DNA from: Vicinamibacterales bacterium
GTDB taxonomy: Bacteria > Acidobacteriota > Vicinamibacteria > Vicinamibacterales > CAVVIG01
Reading direction: 5' to 3'
DNA: 64,000 bases
Assembly (NCBI GenBank): GCA_036004865.1
Contig: DASYQZ010000097.1
Location: forward strand, 4,606 to 68,605
Shown: one piece after another, positions 10,107 to 50,401 of the stretch
How the letters are laid out: every line of letters begins with the position of its first letter
Position numbering within the stretch: the stretch's first letter is position 1
The notes under the pieces: model-generated
Seen by the model: only the letters and a program-made list of their open reading frames with translations
Told to the model about the DNA's origin: nothing
The model's database searches: none
Made by a program: the position numbers and the translations under genes

Positions 10107-10838
10107 ATGGCTCTCGTCGCCACGGCGACCATGATCGAGCTCGATCGCGTCACCCGGCAGTTCGCCGGCAAGCGTGATGTGGTCGCGCTCGACGCCGTCA
10201 GCGTCGCCATCCCGCGCGGCGAACTGGTCTCGATCATCGGTCCGTCCGGCTCCGGCAAGTCGACGCTCCTCAATCTCGTCGGCGGACTCGATCGCCCCAC
10301 CTCCGGCGAGGTCCGCGTCGACGGCGAGACGCTCTCCGGCCTCGCAGACGATGCGCTGACGCGCGTCCGGCGCGACAAGATTGGTTTCATCTTTCAGTTC
10401 TTCAATCTGCTGCCGACGCTGTCGTGCCTCGAGAACGTCGGCCTCCCGCTGCACCTGCGCGGCTGGCCGCGCAGGAAAGTCGACGAGCGCGCGCGTGAGC
10501 TGCTGCACCTCGTACAACTGGGCCATCGCCTCACGCACCTCCCAGAGGAGCTCTCCGGCGGCGAGCGCCAGCGCGTCGCCATCGCCCGCGCGCTCTCGAT
10601 CTATCCGCCGATCCTGCTGGCCGACGAACCGACCGGCAATCTCGACACCCGCACCGGCGACGAGATCCTGACGCTCATCCGCGATCTCCACACCCGTCTC
10701 AAATCCACCGTCGTCATTGTCACCCACGATCTGGACGTCGCTCAGAGCTGCGAGCGCACGATCGCGCTTCGCGACGGCCGCGTCATCGAAGATATCCGGC
10801 GAGGACATCAGACGGCCACGCCAGCGGAGCGGCCGTGA
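10107..10838 (+). CDS. ABC transporter ATP-binding protein (MacB/LolD type)
   Basis: Walker A GPSGSGKST, signature LSGGERQRVAIARAL, Walker B ILLADEPTGNLD, and the FIFQFFNLLP motif. Confidence 0.92.
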   Translation: MALVATATMIELDRVTRQFAGKRDVVALDAVSVAIPRGELVSIIGPSGSGKSTLLNLVGGLDRPTSGEVRVDGETLSGLADDALTRVRRDKIGFIFQFFNLLPTLSCLENVGLPLHLRGWPRRKVDERARELLHLVQLGHRLTHLPEELSGGERQRVAIARALSIYPPILLADEPTGNLDTRTGDEILTLIRDLHTRLKSTVVIVTHDLDVAQSCERTIALRDGRVIEDIRRGHQTATPAERP

Positions 10839-13475: not shown

Positions 13476-13606
13476 GCGCCTGCGGCCATGCCTCGCGGTC
13501 TGCCGCGAGGCATCAGCGACAGGTCGCGGCGACTTGGCGGGGTCCCCAACGCGGCAGCCGCGTTGGGGTGCCCGTGGGGCCCCGCCGCCAGTGCAAAGAA
13601 GTTAGC
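13476..13606 (+). repeat. dispersed hairpin repeat family F1, copy A (longest)
   Basis: GCGCCTGCGGCCATGCC at the 5' end and GCCGCCAGTGCAAAGAAGTTAGC at the 3' end. It contains a 10-bp hairpin at 13489-13512 and an 11-bp hairpin, CCCCAACGCGG-cag-CCGCGTTGGGG. Confidence 0.85.
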
Positions 13607-13610
13607 GGGG

Positions 13611-14394
13611 GTGTGTGGCCGCGAGAGAGCAAGAGCCGTCGGCGTGATACTCCTCACAGTCCTGTTGTCTGTACCGCGAGCACCAAGCGGCGCCGACAAC
13701 GCGCGCCAGATCGTCGAAGAAGCGCAGAAGCGCACTGGCGCGAAGTCGCATCGCTACGAAGGGCTGCTGCAGGTGTTCGACTCGAAGGGCAACATCGGCG
13801 ACAAGCGCTGGACGTTCGAGCGGCTCGGCGCGCACGGCAACAGCAAGGCGGTCCTGCGATTCACCGCTCCCGCCGAGGTCAAGGGCGTCGCGCTGCTCGT
13901 CGTCAACCACCCGGATCGCGCGTCCGATCAATGGATGTGGACGCCGGCGCTCGAGCGCGATCGCCGGATCGCGCTGCAGGATCGCTCGACGCGGTTCTTC
14001 GGCACCGACTTCAGCTTCGAGGATCTCGAGGAGCGCGATGTCAACCAGTACGACTACACCCTCGCCGGGCGAGGAGCCGGTTGACGGCGCTGCATGCTGG
14101 AAGATCCAGTCGACGCCGAAAGAGTCCAAGTCGTCGCAGTACACGCGATCGATTGTCTGGATTCGCAAGGACACGTACTCCTTCCTGCGGATCGACAACT
14201 ACATCAATGATCAGACGGTGCGCCGGCTGACGTACCGCGACTACCAGAACGTGCAGGGCATCTGGACGGCGCGGCAGCTGGAGATGGCCGATCTTCGACG
14301 CGGCAGCCGCACGCGCCTGACGCTCGACAAGCTCGCCTACAACGTTCCGCTCAAGGACGAAGACTTCACGCTGCAGGCCATCCGCAGGCAATGA
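13611..14394 (+). pseudogene. LolA-like outer-membrane lipoprotein-sorting protein, split by a +1 frameshift at the G-run 14067-14069
   Basis: The first frame reads ..FEDLEERDVNQYDYTLAG then RGAG-stop. The second frame continues EEPVDGAACWKIQSTPKE..RIDNYINDQ... Removing one G from CCGGGC restores ..DYTLAGEEPVDG... The putative start is GTG 13611, just after repeat F1. Confidence 0.6.
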
Positions 14395-19718: not shown

Positions 19719-19815
19719 GACGTACAGGATACCGCGTTCGTACAGAAAAAGGGCGGGGCACCGGCCCCGCCCGAGCTGACCACGAACGGCTGACAGCTGA
19801 GAGCCGACAGCTGAT

Positions 19816-23731: not shown

Positions 23732-24340
23732 CTACGTGTTCGGTTTCTTGAGTTTTTCGCCCGCGCGAACCGGGATCTTCAAACGGTTCTCTGACGGTGG
23801 AATCGGACATTCGTACGTCGGGTTGAAATAGCAGTACGGGTGATACGCGCGGTTGAAGTCCACCTTGTAGATCCCGGTCGCCGTGCGATCGAGATCCATG
23901 TAGCGCCCGCCGGGATAGGTTTCGGTGACGCTCGTCAGATCGTTGAACGGCACGAACAGTCGATCGAGCGTGCGCGTGTCGGCCTCGACGAACGCCGTCA
24001 GCTTGAGCGGCTGCCCCTTGAGCGAGAATTCCAGCGTGCCGACGCGCCGCATGTTCCGCTGCGTGCCGGTCGACGTTGGCATTTCCATGACCGATCGATC
24101 CTCGATCGTTTTGAGCTGGGCCGGCACGTCGTAGTCGGGATCGATCGGAAAGTACGCGAGGGGGAGAAACTCCGCGAGCTTCGCCTTGGGTATTGGACCG
24201 TCTGCCGTCTGAAACAGTGCATCCTTCGCCGCGCGATCGGCCGCGACCTTGACGGCGTAGTCCTTGGCTTCGGGGGGCGGGGGAGCTGAACAAGCGCCAA
24301 TCGATAGGCTCAGCACTATTCCGATCAGCCAGCCGCTCAT
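23732..24340 (-). CDS. DUF1684-family lipoprotein
   Basis: ..YPGGRYMDL..GIYKVDFNRAYHPYCYFNP.YECPIPP.EN. Signal and lipobox MSGWLIGIVLSLSIGAC. Start trimmed to ATG 24340 because the upstream extension is repeat F1. Confidence 0.75.
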   Translation of the reverse strand: MSGWLIGIVLSLSIGACSAPPPPEAKDYAVKVAADRAAKDALFQTADGPIPKAKLAEFLPLAYFPIDPDYDVPAQLKTIEDRSVMEMPTSTGTQRNMRRVGTLEFSLKGQPLKLTAFVEADTRTLDRLFVPFNDLTSVTETYPGGRYMDLDRTATGIYKVDFNRAYHPYCYFNPTYECPIPPSENRLKIPVRAGEKLKKPNT

Positions 24341-24365
24341 GCTTTCTCGCGACGCCTGCGCCCTG

Positions 24366-24456
24366 TCAACTTTTTTGCACTGGCGCCGGGGGCCCACCCC
24401 CGGCGCGAGCTGTCGCTGATGCGTCGCGGCGGACCGCGACGCATGGCCGCGGGCGC
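24366..24456 (-). repeat. family F1, copy B
   Basis: The reverse complement reads gcgcccgcggccatgcgtcgcggtccgccgcgacgcatcagcgacagctcgcgccgggggtgggcccccggcgccagtgcaaaaaagttgac. Confidence 0.85.
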
Positions 24457-32760: not shown

Positions 32761-32771
32761 AGTTAATTCGC

Positions 32772-32839
32772 CATCTTTTTTGCACTGGCGGCGGGGCCCC
32801 CACCCCCCGCGCTGGGGGCCCCGGCATGGCCGCAGGCGC
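32772..32839 (-). repeat. family F1, copy C (short form lacking hairpin 1)
   Basis: The reverse complement reads gcgcctgcggccatgcc-ggggcccccagcgcggggggtgggggcccc-gccgccagtgcaaaaaagatgg. Confidence 0.8.
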
Positions 32840-48228: not shown

Positions 48229-49340
48229 TCGTCCGTCCTTTCAAACGCGCTGACCGCCGCGGCGACGTCGCGCACCTCGTCCTCGCTGAGCGCGGGATGC
48301 AGCGGCAGCGACAGCACTTCCTCACAGACGCCGCTCGCCACGCGACAGCAATCGGCCGGCGCCATGCCGGCCAGCGCCGGCTGACGCGGAATCGGCAGCG
48401 GATAGTGAATCAGGGTTTCGATGCCGCGCGCCGCCAGATGCGCCTGGAGATCGTAACGTGCGGCGCTGCGCACGACGAACAGATGGTACACATGTCCGGG
48501 ATCGCGTTCGGGCGGCACCGACACCGGCGCATTCACGAGCGCCGCGCGATATGCGGCGGCGAGGCGGCGGCGCCGCTCGGTCCACGCGCGGAGCCGCGGC
48601 AGGCGTGCGCGCAGGATGGCCGCCTGCATTTCGTCGAGCCGCGAATTGATCCCCGCCTCGCGATGCTGATAGCGATCGGTCTGCCCGCCGTTGCGCAGCC
48701 GCTCGATCTTTTCGGCCAGCGCCGCTTGGTTGGTGATGACCGCGCCGCCGTCGCCGAGCGCGCCCAGATTTTTCGTCGGGTAGAAGCTGAAGGCGCCCGC
48801 GACGCCGATCGTGCCGACGGGCCGTCCGCCCGCGGTGGCGAGATGCGCCTGGCAGCAATCCTCGACGATCTGCAACTGGTGCTGTGCCGCGATCGCCGCG
48901 ATCGCCGTCATGTCCGCCGGCTGACCGTAGAGATGCACCGGCAGCACGGCGCGCGTGCGCGTCGTGATCGCGCGTTCGATCTGATGCGGATCGAGCGTGA
49001 GGCGCTCGGGGTCGATGTCGGCGAAGACAGGCCGCGCGCCCACCATCATGATGGCGAGCGCGGTGTAGGCCGCCGAAAGCGGCGTGGTGATGACTTCGTC
49101 GCCCTCGCCGATACCGAGCGCGCGGAGAATCAGCGCGATCGCGTCGGTGCCGGTGCCGACGCCGACCGCGTGCGCGGCCCCCATCGCCGCCGCGAACTCG
49201 GCCTCGAAGGCCTCGACTTCCGGTCCGAGCACGAACCAGCCGCTGGCGACGACGCGATCGATCGCGCTCTTCACGGCGGCTGCGTCTTCGCTTCCCGGGG
49301 CGGGCACCAGCGACAGGAACGGCAGGCGCGGGCCGGTCAC
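48216..49340 (-). CDS. DegT/DnrJ/EryC1/StrS (ArnB-like) PLP-dependent sugar aminotransferase
   Basis: ..GWFVLGPEV.AFE.EFA...G..HAVGV.TGTDA..L.. and ..FSFYPTKNLGALGDGG... Start trimmed to GTG 49340 because the longer ORF reads through an F1 repeat module. Confidence 0.88.
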   Translation of the reverse strand: MTGPRLPFLSLVPAPGSEDAAAVKSAIDRVVASGWFVLGPEVEAFEAEFAAAMGAAHAVGVGTGTDAIALILRALGIGEGDEVITTPLSAAYTALAIMMVGARPVFADIDPERLTLDPHQIERAITTRTRAVLPVHLYGQPADMTAIAAIAAQHQLQIVEDCCQAHLATAGGRPVGTIGVAGAFSFYPTKNLGALGDGGAVITNQAALAEKIERLRNGGQTDRYQHREAGINSRLDEMQAAILRARLPRLRAWTERRRRLAAAYRAALVNAPVSVPPERDPGHVYHLFVVRSAARYDLQAHLAARGIETLIHYPLPIPRQPALAGMAPADCCRVASGVCEEVLSLPLHPALSEDEVRDVAAAVSAFERTDECVR

Positions 49341-50401
49341 ACGCGCTCCGATCGGCCACCCCAACGCGGCTGCCGCGTTGCGGACCCCGGCGCGTCGCGC
49401 GGGTCGAGGTACTGCCCGAGGTTCTGGCGATAGAACTCGACCGTCCGCCGCAAGCCCTCGGCGAGCGTGATCGCCGGCCTCCATCCGGTCGTGCGTGTGA
49501 ATTTCGACGAATCGGTGTAGATGCTGCCGATGTCAATCGCAATCTTCTCGGGCGGCCAGTCCACGTACTCGACGCGTCCCGATCCCGCGACGTCGATGAG
49601 CAGCGACGTCAATTGACGGTGGCTGATCGCCTCGTCGCCTCCGACGTTGAACGCCTCGCCGTTGACGGCGTCGCTCGCGCCGGCGCGCAGAAACGCATCC
49701 GCCGCGTCGTCGACGAACACGAAGTCGCGTAGCTGCGAGCCGTCGCCGTAGATCTGGATCGTCGCGTCTTCGATCGCGAGCCGAATGAACCACGCGACGA
49801 AACCCTGTCGATTGTGTTTGATCAGCTGACGTGGCCCGTAGACGTTCGTGAGCCGCAGCGAGCAGGCGCGCACGCCAAACACATTGTTGTACACAAGGTG
49901 GTAATACTCGCCCGCCGCCTTGTTGATGCCGTTGACGTCGGTCGGCCGCACGAGGTGCGTTTCGTCGACCGGCAGCGAGCCGGGCTTGCCGTAGACCTGC
50001 CGCGTGCCGGCGAACACGACCTTGACGCCGGGATTGTGATTGCGGCACGCCTCCAGCACCGTCAGCTGGCTGCGGCAGTTGATTTCCAGATCCGTGTACG
50101 GATCCCGCATGCTGTCGATGTGGCTCACCTGTCCGGCGAGATTGAAGATCACGTGGCGATCGCGCACCAGATAGTTCATCGTCGACTGCTGGCGGATGTC
50201 GGCGACGTTCACGCGCAGGCGATCGGCGATGCCGTCGATGTTGAACAGGTTGCCGCCGTAGTCCGGGATGAGCGAGTCGACGAGCAGCACGTCGGCGCCC
50301 AAATCGACGAGTACGCGCGCGAGGTTGCTGCCGATGAATCCGAGGCCGCCGGTGATCATCACACGACGGCCGCGGTAGAACTCGCGGTAGTCCACCGTCA
50401 C
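49337..50401 (-). CDS. NAD-dependent epimerase/dehydratase (SDR)
   Basis: ITGGLGFIGSNL and the ..YYHLVY../..INKAAGE.. catalytic region. GTG 50401 forms a GTGA overlap with the upstream GT2 stop. The last roughly 20 codons are repeat-derived. Confidence 0.85.
   Translation of the reverse strand: MTVDYREFYRGRRVMITGGLGFIGSNLARVLVDLGADVLLVDSLIPDYGGNLFNIDGIADRLRVNVADIRQQSTMNYLVRDRHVIFNLAGQVSHIDSMRDPYTDLEINCRSQLTVLEACRNHNPGVKVVFAGTRQVYGKPGSLPVDETHLVRPTDVNGINKAAGEYYHLVYNNVFGVRACSLRLTNVYGPRQLIKHNRQGFVAWFIRLAIEDATIQIYGDGSQLRDFVFVDDAADAFLRAGASDAVNGEAFNVGGDEAISHRQLTSLLIDVAGSGRVEYVDWPPEKIAIDIGSIYTDSSKFTRTTGWRPAITLAEGLRRTVEFYRQNLGQYLDPRDAPGSATRQPRWGGRSERV
49361..49398 (-). repeat. isolated hairpin module of family F1
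   Basis: ccaccccaacgcggctgccgcgttgcggaccccgg matches the inner hairpin of copy A (13545-13575) in reverse complement. Confidence 0.75.

Follow-up and report, generated by a model that had tools for sequence, protein, structure and literature searches.

F1, an apparently lineage-specific hairpin repeat of Vicinamibacteria, is biased towards the sense orientation and towards sites just before start codons

The question raised by the 64,000-nucleotide stretch of Vicinamibacterales contig DASYQZ010000097.1 analysed here (the window) is why a GC-rich hairpin repeat, which we refer to as F1, should lie three times between co-directional genes, each time pointing with transcription and ending shortly before the next start codon. 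An earlier note on this DNA had proposed F1 as a modular, dispersed family, and this holds beyond the window, as F1 recurs in Vicinamibacteria genomes and at 75 metagenome loci; its existence, orientation bias and structural conservation are close to certain. F1 looks like an undescribed, lineage-specific short-repeat family of Vicinamibacteria (Acidobacteriota) that belongs among the small co-transcribed intergenic repeats, a REP/BIME- and MIRU-like relative. Our preferred reading, to which we give a probability of roughly 0.55, is that F1 is a co-transcribed, MIRU/BIME-like intercistronic repeat which spreads or recombines and is mainly kept where expression is compatible with its orientation, with a role in RNA or translation that we infer from sequence features.

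The three window copies (copy A, 13476-13601 on the plus strand; copy B, 24370-24456, and copy C, 32775-32839, both on the minus strand) have identical ends, as had been claimed for them: within the window the 16-base 5' end GCGCCYGCGGCCATGC and the 15-base 3' end GCCAGTGCAAARAAG have perfect matches solely at these three sites, and a pattern combining both ends matches copies B and C against a shuffled expectation of 0.00. Scanning 185,579 species-representative genomes with the two-end pattern gave 68 matches, 63 of them by chance and five of them true copies in four metagenome-assembled genomes (MAGs), all from Acidobacteriota/Vicinamibacteria. In metagenomes a 22-base 3'-end pattern recovered F1 members at every locus (75/75), which reduce to 67 unique loci with 66 distinct element sequences, and a covariance model built on the type I copies described below found further copies independently of the search pattern. 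Copies from unrelated loci share a mean identity of 95%. The density is ~1 copy per 20-30 kb (three copies over the 64 kb of the window and, by our own tally, some 12 more over roughly 330 kb), which implies a few hundred copies per genome. Rfam gave no match at the gathering score for the window and none at E<=1 for four element-bearing loci, and no description of the repeat content of Vicinamibacteria, nor of F1, was found in the searchable literature. Two sets of candidates were set aside: the 5'-end 16-mer alone had at least 120 matches in viral contigs, chance only among the matches listed, and longer or combined patterns were used afterwards; a covariance-model match at 10400-10490 of the window (24 bits) was spurious, lying antisense inside an ABC ATPase coding region and having no conserved ends.

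Orientation was judged against flanking genes whose strands were called by codon frequencies trained on 129 long open-reading frames (ORFs) from these sequences. At unique loci with a confident call the gene downstream is in the sense direction in 42 cases and antisense in 8 (p=1.2e-6), and of the 11 additional copies that the pattern had not selected nine are also sense, giving about 51:10 overall (~84% sense). The original claim that F1 is always co-oriented with transcription is thus reduced to a strong bias, ~16% of copies being antisense and those at two orthologous loci (L267 and L268; L numbers are our locus designations) being inverted. With both flanks confidently called, the contexts were ++ in 22 cases, -- in 4, -+ in 2 and +- in none (0/28 convergent). 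An intra-operon position, also claimed earlier, is the commonest context and not the only one: at L199/L258, L213 and L192 the gene before F1 is divergent and the copy lies in the 5' leader of the downstream gene, and orientation therefore tracks the downstream gene. Within the window the GC skew does not change sign, though copy A lies on the plus strand and copies B and C on the minus strand within 20 kb, therefore orientation here follows transcription and not replication; replication strand is unsupported as its cause in the window.

The upstream stop codon precedes the element in 33/35 sense loci (by 2-146 nt, median 12 nt), and the next start codon follows the A-tract at the F1 3' end after 0-55 nt (median about 13 nt, by our tally from the flanks). 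The downstream genes are functionally unrelated, including rplK, moaC, yicC, transporters and dehydrogenases; the same families recur behind F1 across lineages, namely moaC (five loci), yicC (three to four), DUF1684 and the ABC-2 permease. About half of the proteins encoded downstream of sense copies start with a signal peptide, lipobox or transmembrane segment (copies A, B and C; L192, L202, L209, L223, L225, L236 and L263), and there seems, on small counts and from reading the predicted proteins, to be an excess of membrane or export starts.

On the sense strand F1 runs from a conserved single-stranded 5' end (AGCGCCTGCGGCC) through three hairpins (HP1, HP2 and HP3) to an unstructured tail, CAGUGCAAAAAAG, with the single-stranded 3' end GCCAGTGCAAAAAAG; it also carries a CAAAAAAG tract. 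The two canonical lengths, 87 nt (type I) and 99 nt (type II), follow from HP1, which has an 11-bp stem and a UCUG, UCCG or GGGA loop in type I and a 15-bp stem and a 7-8-nt loop in type II. HP2 has the family form GCGA-NAGN-TCGC and HP3 the form GCG[G/C]CGGGG-GUGG-GGCCCCG[C/G]CGC. The 3' boundary given earlier was refined, as about half of the members extend ~6-8 nt beyond AAAAAAG, as (A/T)TGGCG or (T)AAGACAG.

These hairpins are maintained by compensated changes. The double substitution that had been noticed in HP1 (tgcCtcgcgg/ccgcgaGgca in copy A, tgcGtcgcgg/ccgcgaCgca in copy B) is real, and stem-preserving substitutions are general across the family rather than a single event. In an alignment of 20 type I copies 97.3% of cells are paired and five pairs are compensated, which none of 500 shuffles equalled; columns 54 and 71, which pair in HP3, hold G-C in 14 copies and C-G in the other 6, without a single mismatch, the search pattern having constrained only column 71, the 3' partner. 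In a model-based alignment of 85 distinct copies, which is biased towards the structure of the covariance model, 92.3% of cells are paired, 17/22 pairs have two-sided changes and 167 cells are compensated (0/500 shuffles), against 31-60% pairing in slid controls. All 11 helix pairs of HP1 show two-sided change somewhere in the family, and the inner pair of HP2 compensates between A-U and U-A. Random orientation and an absence of compensation, which the earlier note had named as the mark of an ordinary decaying MITE, are not what the family data show.

Which molecule folds is less clear from these changes than which strand. Of the non-Watson-Crick states, a tandem G.A/A.G within C-GA-G is the most frequent; it alternates with TC/GA, GA/TC and GC/GC, and this alternation fits a tolerated sheared pair and equally fits hairpin-templated correction in DNA. 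In a fixed-structure count G.U pairs outnumber A.C pairs by 27 to 10, and the sense-strand loops are of the GNRA and UNCG types (GGGA and UCCG, respectively) or read UCUG; because of the G.U excess and the GNRA/UNCG-type loops the sense strand is suggested as the folding strand, whether as RNA or as single-stranded DNA. The covariation as a whole is compatible with an RNA-level constraint, a single-stranded-DNA hairpin constraint or quasi-palindrome correction. Two structural candidates were rejected: a long-range pairing of the 5' end with the HP3 3' arm (from RNAfold at L185), as column 71 covaries with column 54 and column 4 is invariant, and a K-turn reading of the tandem G.A pairs, as the 3-nt bulge is absent. 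Pair counts from minimum-free-energy folds of sense and antisense RNA were uninformative.

In the window the family architecture is combined with a second element, M2, and the features are as follows.

13476-13601, plus strand: F1 copy A, 126 nt, a type I copy whose HP3 loop holds a nested M2; covariance model 73.7 bits
13476-13487, plus strand: single-stranded 5' end of copy A, GCGCCTGCGGCC, near-invariant in 20 and 85 aligned copies
13488-13513, plus strand: HP1 of copy A, 11-bp stem ATGCCTCGCGG / CCGCGAGGCAT, loop TCTG
13516-13527, plus strand: HP2 mini-hairpin of copy A, GCGA-CAGG-TCGC
13536-13574, plus strand: M2 nested in copy A, stem CCCCAACGCGG at 13544-13554, loop CAG, stem CCGCGTTGGGG at 13558-13568
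13575-13586, plus strand: 3' arm of HP3 in copy A, TGGGGCCCCGCC, separated from its 5' partner arm by the M2 insertion
13587-13607, plus strand: single-stranded 3' tail of copy A, GCCAGTGCAAAGAAG, with the 3' extension TTAGCG
13396 and 13611: neighbours of copy A, the stop of the FtsX/MacB permease and the probable GTG start of the LolA-like gene
24370-24456, minus strand: F1 copy B, canonical 87-nt type I; covariance model 105.4 bits
24470-24468 and 24340-24338: neighbours of copy B, the ACAD stop and the DUF1684 ATG
24337-24369, minus strand: ten-codon mini-ORF of copy B, with TTG right after the A-tract and a TGA overlapping the DUF1684 ATG (ATGA)
32775-32839, minus strand: F1 copy C, 65 nt, an internal-deletion derivative; covariance model 36.9 bits
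10 nt 5' of copy C, and 32760: neighbours of copy C, the TAA stop of the ABC ATPase and the GTG of the ABC-2 permease
32763-32774, minus strand: mini-ORF of copy C, ATG GCG AAT TAA, right after the A-tract and ending 2 nt 5' of the permease GTG
49352-49392, minus strand: solo M2, core 49359-49383; the loop reads CAG on the minus strand, in the sense of the local genes

The genes on either side, as labelled earlier, agree with Pfam and with precomputed annotation at all four spacers (FtsX/MacB permease to LolA_like, ACAD to DUF1684, ABC_tran to ABC-2 permease, and Epimerase to DegT aminotransferase), and the distance from the element to the next start is 9 nt for copy A, 29 nt for copy B, 14 nt for copy C and about 18 nt for M2. 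The 11-bp hairpin of copy A (13544-13568, flanked within M2 by GGCGGGGT and TGCCCG) does recur at 49359-49383 with one mismatch, its loop there reading CTG on the plus strand, as had been seen; it is not an extra F1 module, being a separate nested element with an insertion polymorphism of its own between the window and L266. Likewise, HP1 is indeed missing from copy C, which does not carry a different set of modules: its 5' end and left M2 arm are joined directly to HP3 and the 3' tail, making it a deletion derivative of an M2-bearing copy like that at L210. The suspicion that the elements create false ORF ends proved half right. DUF1684 calls are inflated through F1, to 242-270 aa in the JGI annotation. 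The C-terminal tail of the epimerase is not false: the solo M2 sits within the last 22 codons (region 49337-49400, minus strand) of an ORF that has no stop before M2, gains the 22-aa tail DPRDAPGSATRQPRWGGRSERV through it and retains the overlap of its TGA with the DegT GTG start (GTGA, 49340-49337).

In its distribution F1 behaves as repetitive, recombining DNA, with filled and empty sites, both orientations, arrays, deletions and mosaics, and is probably mobile. HP1 has been cleanly lost at L255, L236 and L235 (60-63 nt) and nearly everything at L234 (42 nt); head-to-tail arrays of two to three copies occur at L185 (three copies), L193, L222 and L247, most sites being single-copy. Within F1, M2 occupies either of two sites, one ahead of HP1 and the other inside the HP3 loop, and it stands alone in the window, L185 and L203; more than 20 nested M2 copies share the orientation of the host F1. 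Orthologous operons, a comparison that the earlier note had proposed, were obtained via ACAD homologues (84-97% identity) and revealed presence/absence polymorphism. In the ACAD-to-DUF1684 spacer the states were as follows.

Window and L001: F1 in sense orientation
L266 (97% ACAD identity to the window): F1 in sense orientation with M2, and a C.C mismatch in HP1
L269 and L196: F1 in sense orientation
L267 and L268: F1 inverted
L270, L271 and L272: without F1, with sense-strand G-rich arrays, (GGGCAGGT)n or (GGTGGGTCA)n

M2 is therefore present in the L266 copy and absent from the window copy at the same spacer, and the C.C mismatch in HP1 of L266 points to conversion from another copy. The junction between the ABC ATPase and the permease is empty, with a GTGA or ATGA gene overlap, in L272 and L268, is occupied by F1 in the window and L248, and holds an unrelated hairpin in L269. 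Nucleotide-exact insertion boundaries were not recoverable from filled versus empty sites, the junctions being too diverged. F1 does not have inverted-complementary ends (GCGCCTGCGGCC on the 5' side, GCCAGTGCAAAAAAG on the 3' side), the flanks carry no consistent direct repeat, and the 5' flanks are variable except for an A at -1 and CAGCA in ~40%, with no conserved tetra- or pentanucleotide target.

The 3' end of F1 has features that bear on translation. Stop triplets are scarce in the sense strand (22 vs 84 +/- 7 expected, with 64 in the antisense strand), and the frame ...GCA AAA AAG contains one stop triplet in 62 copies vs 11 and 10 in the other frames. In 26/50 sense loci the codon right after AAAAAAG is ATG, TTG or GTG. 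At nine loci this codon is in frame with the downstream ORF and is its apparent start, for example in moaC at L135 and L227 and in genes with signal peptides at L202, L209, L223 and L263, and at 14 loci it opens a mini-ORF of 3-19 codons. Half of these mini-ORFs (7/14) terminate on the real start, through ATGA, TTGA or TGATG (window copy B and yicC at L206, L210 and L246, plus L212, L230 and L242), their lengths differing among the three yicC loci, and three more stop 2-8 nt before the real start (2 nt in window copy C). As evidence of translational coupling this stop-start overlap is only suggestive, and we infer a possible role for the mini-ORFs of copies B and C from their position in the sequence. 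At other loci the A-tract continues into a Shine-Dalgarno-like AAGGAG or AGAGGA. At the L144 locus (L144, L204, L237 and L229) the upstream ORF stays open across all of F1 and closes with GTGA on the next start, and the 81-nt variant at L229, a 6-nt difference, keeps the frame.

Some loci suggest that F1 may itself enter a coding sequence. In moaC at L207, L239 and L259 the stretch from the F1 tail to the conserved LSHVD motif contains neither ATG, GTG nor TTG, and the frame ...GCA AAA AAG is open into moaC, such that MoaC may start inside or upstream of F1. At L267:5150-5290 and L268:11815-11935 the sole in-frame start for the DUF1684 lipoprotein signal peptide lies within the antisense element (ATGCCTCGCCTCGG...), which seems to encode the predicted N-terminal region. 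A reading of the element as an integron attC site was rejected: the 3' flanks do not fit GTTRRRY, and the flanking genes are syntenic operon partners conserved across lineages.

Under our preferred reading, of a co-transcribed repeat retained where it suits expression, sense copies would persist since only that orientation is compatible with the expression of the genes around it, having almost no stop triplets and no terminator. Sense orientation would also set the stable hairpins 5' of the sole single-stranded stretch rich in A, immediately ahead of the ribosome start site. In the mRNA the hairpins might then serve as an intercistronic stabiliser or insulator, and the A-tract, often with an ATG or TTG of its own, as a landing or re-initiation pad that provides either the real start or the start of a mini-ORF. 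Re-initiation of this kind could keep the downstream gene translated after F1 had split a formerly overlapping gene pair.

Several results weigh against this reading. The mini-ORF overlap is observed in 7/12, or in 5/10 with the yicC orthologues collapsed, against an estimated chance of 0.25-0.3 per locus with the right frame (p about 0.04-0.15); a start codon after the A-tract is not significantly enriched in sense over antisense copies (26/50 vs 3/10); and the derived forms show no excess of lengths divisible by three (10/23 distinct). The ~16% of copies in antisense are evidently tolerated, and the gene calls at the loci rest on our own codon-usage scoring rather than on an annotation pipeline. 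Compensatory double changes can arise in DNA by hairpin-templated quasi-palindrome correction, to which the alternation of GA/GA with TC/GA and GA/TC would correspond, and the G.U excess could reflect a transcription-linked C-to-T bias. No target-site duplication or terminal inverted repeat was found for F1, nor a transposase, for which no systematic search was made.

Among known repeats F1 fits in like MIRU and is built like BIME/REP, and it fails defining features of each. MIRU, the mycobacterial interspersed repetitive units, are operon-internal short repeats oriented with transcription and sometimes tandem, inserted at start codons, with an internal ORF coupled to the downstream gene at -4 spacing (Supply et al. 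1997, as summarised in PMC12548453). F1 shares the co-orientation (as a bias that is not absolute), the adjacency to start codons and the tandem arrays, and it may share the coupling: 7/14 mini-ORFs end on the real start and nine further loci are in frame with the main ORF, counts that are only suggestive at an estimated chance rate of 0.25-0.3. It differs in belonging to another phylum, in its stable GC hairpins with covarying stems and in being mostly single-copy and not a variable-number tandem repeat, the two families being compared here by description and not by sequence. It also differs in that the upstream stop is not overlapped by an ORF of the element (it lies a median 12 nt before it), the L144 locus being the sole read-through.

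The REP elements of Enterobacteria and Pseudomonas are palindromes of 20-40 bp, one end of which bears an unpaired GTAG or CGTC tag (PMC3733652). F1 and M2 resemble REP/BIME as high-copy, extragenic, GC-rich palindromes of mosaic or modular make-up, REP/BIME being co-transcribed and thought to stabilise mRNA, and M2 alone, with its 11-bp stem and 3-nt loop and its nested and solo occurrences, is REP-like. The feet of HP1, HP3 and M2, on a consensus reading, are GGCC/ATGCC, CGCG/GCGGGG and GGGGT/CCCC, without a GTAG or CGTC tag. F1 further lacks an inverted-pair (REPIN) organisation, its arrays being head-to-tail and the one inverted pair, at L241, an apparent artefact; it has conserved single-stranded ends and three unlike hairpins; and REPs lie mainly downstream of coding regions, including convergent sites, whereas F1 lies 5' of starts with no confident convergent case.

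ERIC/IRU and the Correia elements of Neisseria are ~100-150 bp long and co-transcribed in operons, with an orientation-dependent effect on mRNA via RNase E (ERIC) or RNase III (Correia) (as summarised in PMC3049150). F1 is likewise a repeat of ~100 nt inside operons; however, ERIC and Correia have terminal inverted repeats and one long hairpin, with TA duplications and IHF sites in Correia, whereas F1 lacks terminal inverted repeats and is strongly biased in its genomic orientation. The pneumococcal repeats BOX (boxA-boxB-boxC), RUP and SPRITE are over-represented between convergent genes (PMC3049150). They share with F1 the small size, the modularity with variable internal modules, the transcription with neighbouring genes and the spurious ORF calls; F1 instead lies between co-directional genes, just before start codons. 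The IS200/IS605-derived palindrome-associated elements (PATEs) move by HUH single-strand transposition (PMC6006769). F1 is like them in having no terminal inverted repeats, subterminal hairpins, conserved single-stranded sequence outside these and strand-specific behaviour, and unlike them in having no fixed target tetra- or pentanucleotide, 3' of which they insert, and an orientation that tracks transcription in the window where theirs is tied to the replication strand; no TnpA was seen, without a dedicated search for it. From a classical MITE it is set apart by the absence of terminal inverted repeats and of a target-site duplication, and it shares with one the presence/absence polymorphism at orthologous sites. 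For a small co-transcribed intergenic repeat, F1 has an unusual bias to sense-oriented, start-codon-proximal sites; it is a testable lead and no new principle.

The alternative that survives best, which we nonetheless think unlikely, is that F1 is a purely selfish, non-autonomous transposon of the REP/RAYT or IS200/IS605 (PATE) kind that moves as single-stranded DNA, its hairpins and ends being transposase signals, its bias the result of purged harmful insertions and its function for the host nil. The ends agree with this, as F1 has no terminal inverted repeats, its hairpins are subterminal (set in by 12 nt on the 5' side and by 15 nt on the 3' side) and its single-stranded ends are its most conserved parts. 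IS200/IS605 ends have this geometry, with subterminal hairpins and conserved single-stranded ends. The occupied and unoccupied sites, the spacer that carries F1 in either orientation, the tandem arrays, the nested M2, the mosaics and the 95% identity of copies at unrelated loci are also expected of such an element; the GA/GA, TC/GA and GA/TC alternation fits hairpin-templated correction of DNA, and the excess of G.T on one strand fits a single active DNA strand. The 5' flanks, however, offer no conserved tetra- or pentanucleotide target, and orientation in the window follows transcription rather than replication. No transposase with F1-like ends turned up in the collected sequences, among which no systematic search was made. 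Parasitic repeats, moreover, typically gather between convergent genes (PMC3049150), where F1 is found in 0/28 cases, lying instead just 5' of starts.

More ambitious than our preferred reading, and a long shot, is the proposal that F1 has been domesticated as a portable 'intercistronic expression module' for genome-wide operon tuning peculiar to Vicinamibacteria, such that either a dedicated factor reads the hairpins and ends in the mRNA or the spread of F1 is coupled to transcription. In the first case a dedicated factor, such as an RNase or an RNA-binding protein, would act at a few hundred junctions per genome and set how the downstream cistron is processed, how stable it is and how its translation starts independently; in the second, transcription-coupled spread would be the mechanistic source of the sense bias. 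F1, its F2 relatives (described below) and the sense-strand G-rich (GGGCAGGT)n arrays would then be interchangeable spacer fillers.

A dedicated cis-regulatory RNA, meaning a non-mobile leader bound by a protein, by sRNA/Hfq or by a ligand and vertically conserved 5' of a regulon, is very improbable. F1 is always 5' of a gene, covaries, has GNRA/UNCG-type loops in its sense strand and recurs 5' of moaC, yicC, DUF1684 and the ABC-2 permease across lineages, and the A-tract after the hairpin could conceivably serve as an Hfq or S1 site. Yet a density that implies a few hundred copies per genome, downstream genes without a common function and the failure to match Rfam even at E<=1 all speak against a regulon leader, as do orthologous sites that are empty, inverted or filled by other repeats, and the clean deletion of HP1 and insertion of M2 without loss of the copy.

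We give still less credence to F1 as a translated element, read in the frame ...GCA AAA AAG as a small peptide or as N- or C-terminal extensions, like the Rickettsia RPEs. The near-absence of stops from that frame, the L144 read-through ending in GTGA with its frame-keeping 81-nt variant, the solo M2 within the epimerase ORF tail, the three moaC loci without a start between F1 and LSHVD and the antisense copies that apparently supply the DUF1684 N-terminus at L267 and L268 would all be in keeping with translation. The upstream gene, however, stops before F1 in 33/35 sense loci, type II copies have no internal ATG, and compensatory stem changes freely alter the encoded residues; the 85-nt and 124-nt forms and 13/23 derived lengths break the frame, and long open frames are common by chance at 66-75% GC. 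A transcription signal (an intrinsic terminator/attenuator or a mobile promoter) can be dismissed with little hesitation in spite of the GC-rich hairpins between genes and of some copies reading AAAAAAGTTGACA, similar to an UP element with a -35 box after it, as the consensus scan finds no terminator- or promoter-like site at the three window copies (13476-13606, 24366-24456 and 32772-32839), the hairpins are followed in sense by an A-run and not a T-run (in antisense the T-run precedes them), and starts 0-30 nt after the putative -35 box leave no room for a -10 box and a transcript start.

Vicinamibacteria are abundant and barely studied soil bacteria, and on our preferred reading F1 would give them a second, unrelated case of the MIRU idea, an operon-internal repeat that points with transcription and ends on the next start, in a siting opposite to the usual refuge of parasitic repeats in convergent gaps. 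If the RNA role is true, stable hairpins, an A-tract and a start codon would be natural parts for insulating or restarting translation in high-GC bacteria. In practical terms F1 systematically corrupts gene calls, as for DUF1684 at 242-270 aa, and gives variable markers between close strains.

A number of further repeats and irregularities lie near F1. The G-rich arrays, of up to ~17 units (L270:11790-11850, L271:9485-9610 and L272:11786-11850), also flank F1 in L134, L197, L205, L216, L218 and L220; gene callers read through them, and from their composition they could form G-quadruplexes. A related family, 'F2', has a GCGAGCG-type hairpin and GCGCGGGGGTGGGGCCCCGCGC followed by a purine-rich tail reaching the start codon (L266:127-230, L267:438-545 and L267:3180-3320), and fills the 3HCDH-to-abhydrolase spacer in L266 and L267, which in the window lineage is only 15 nt long (AGCGCAGCAAGGACC, L001:3302-3316). 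Between the upstream gene and F1 a motif recurs in L202, L212, L234 and L256, consisting of a short hairpin of the GGCCTGAAAGGCC or GGCTAAAGCC type and then CGCGCTAC(A/G). The inverted pair at L241:1974-2433 consists of two near-identical F1 copies 340 nt apart with identical flanks and scattered 1-nt indels, and looks like an assembly artefact.

Within the window, the LolA-like ORF 3' of copy A (13611-14230 region) is only 157 aa long and matches positions 1-78 of the 184-position Pfam profile, and a second ORF in another frame (13568-14230) overlaps it, which may reflect a frameshift, a pseudogene or a sequence error around 14050. Finally, a clean intrinsic-terminator-like hairpin, GGGCGGGGC-CGGT-GCCCCGCCC followed by TTTTT, is found at 19751-19772 on the minus strand, and the F1 hairpins are unlike it.

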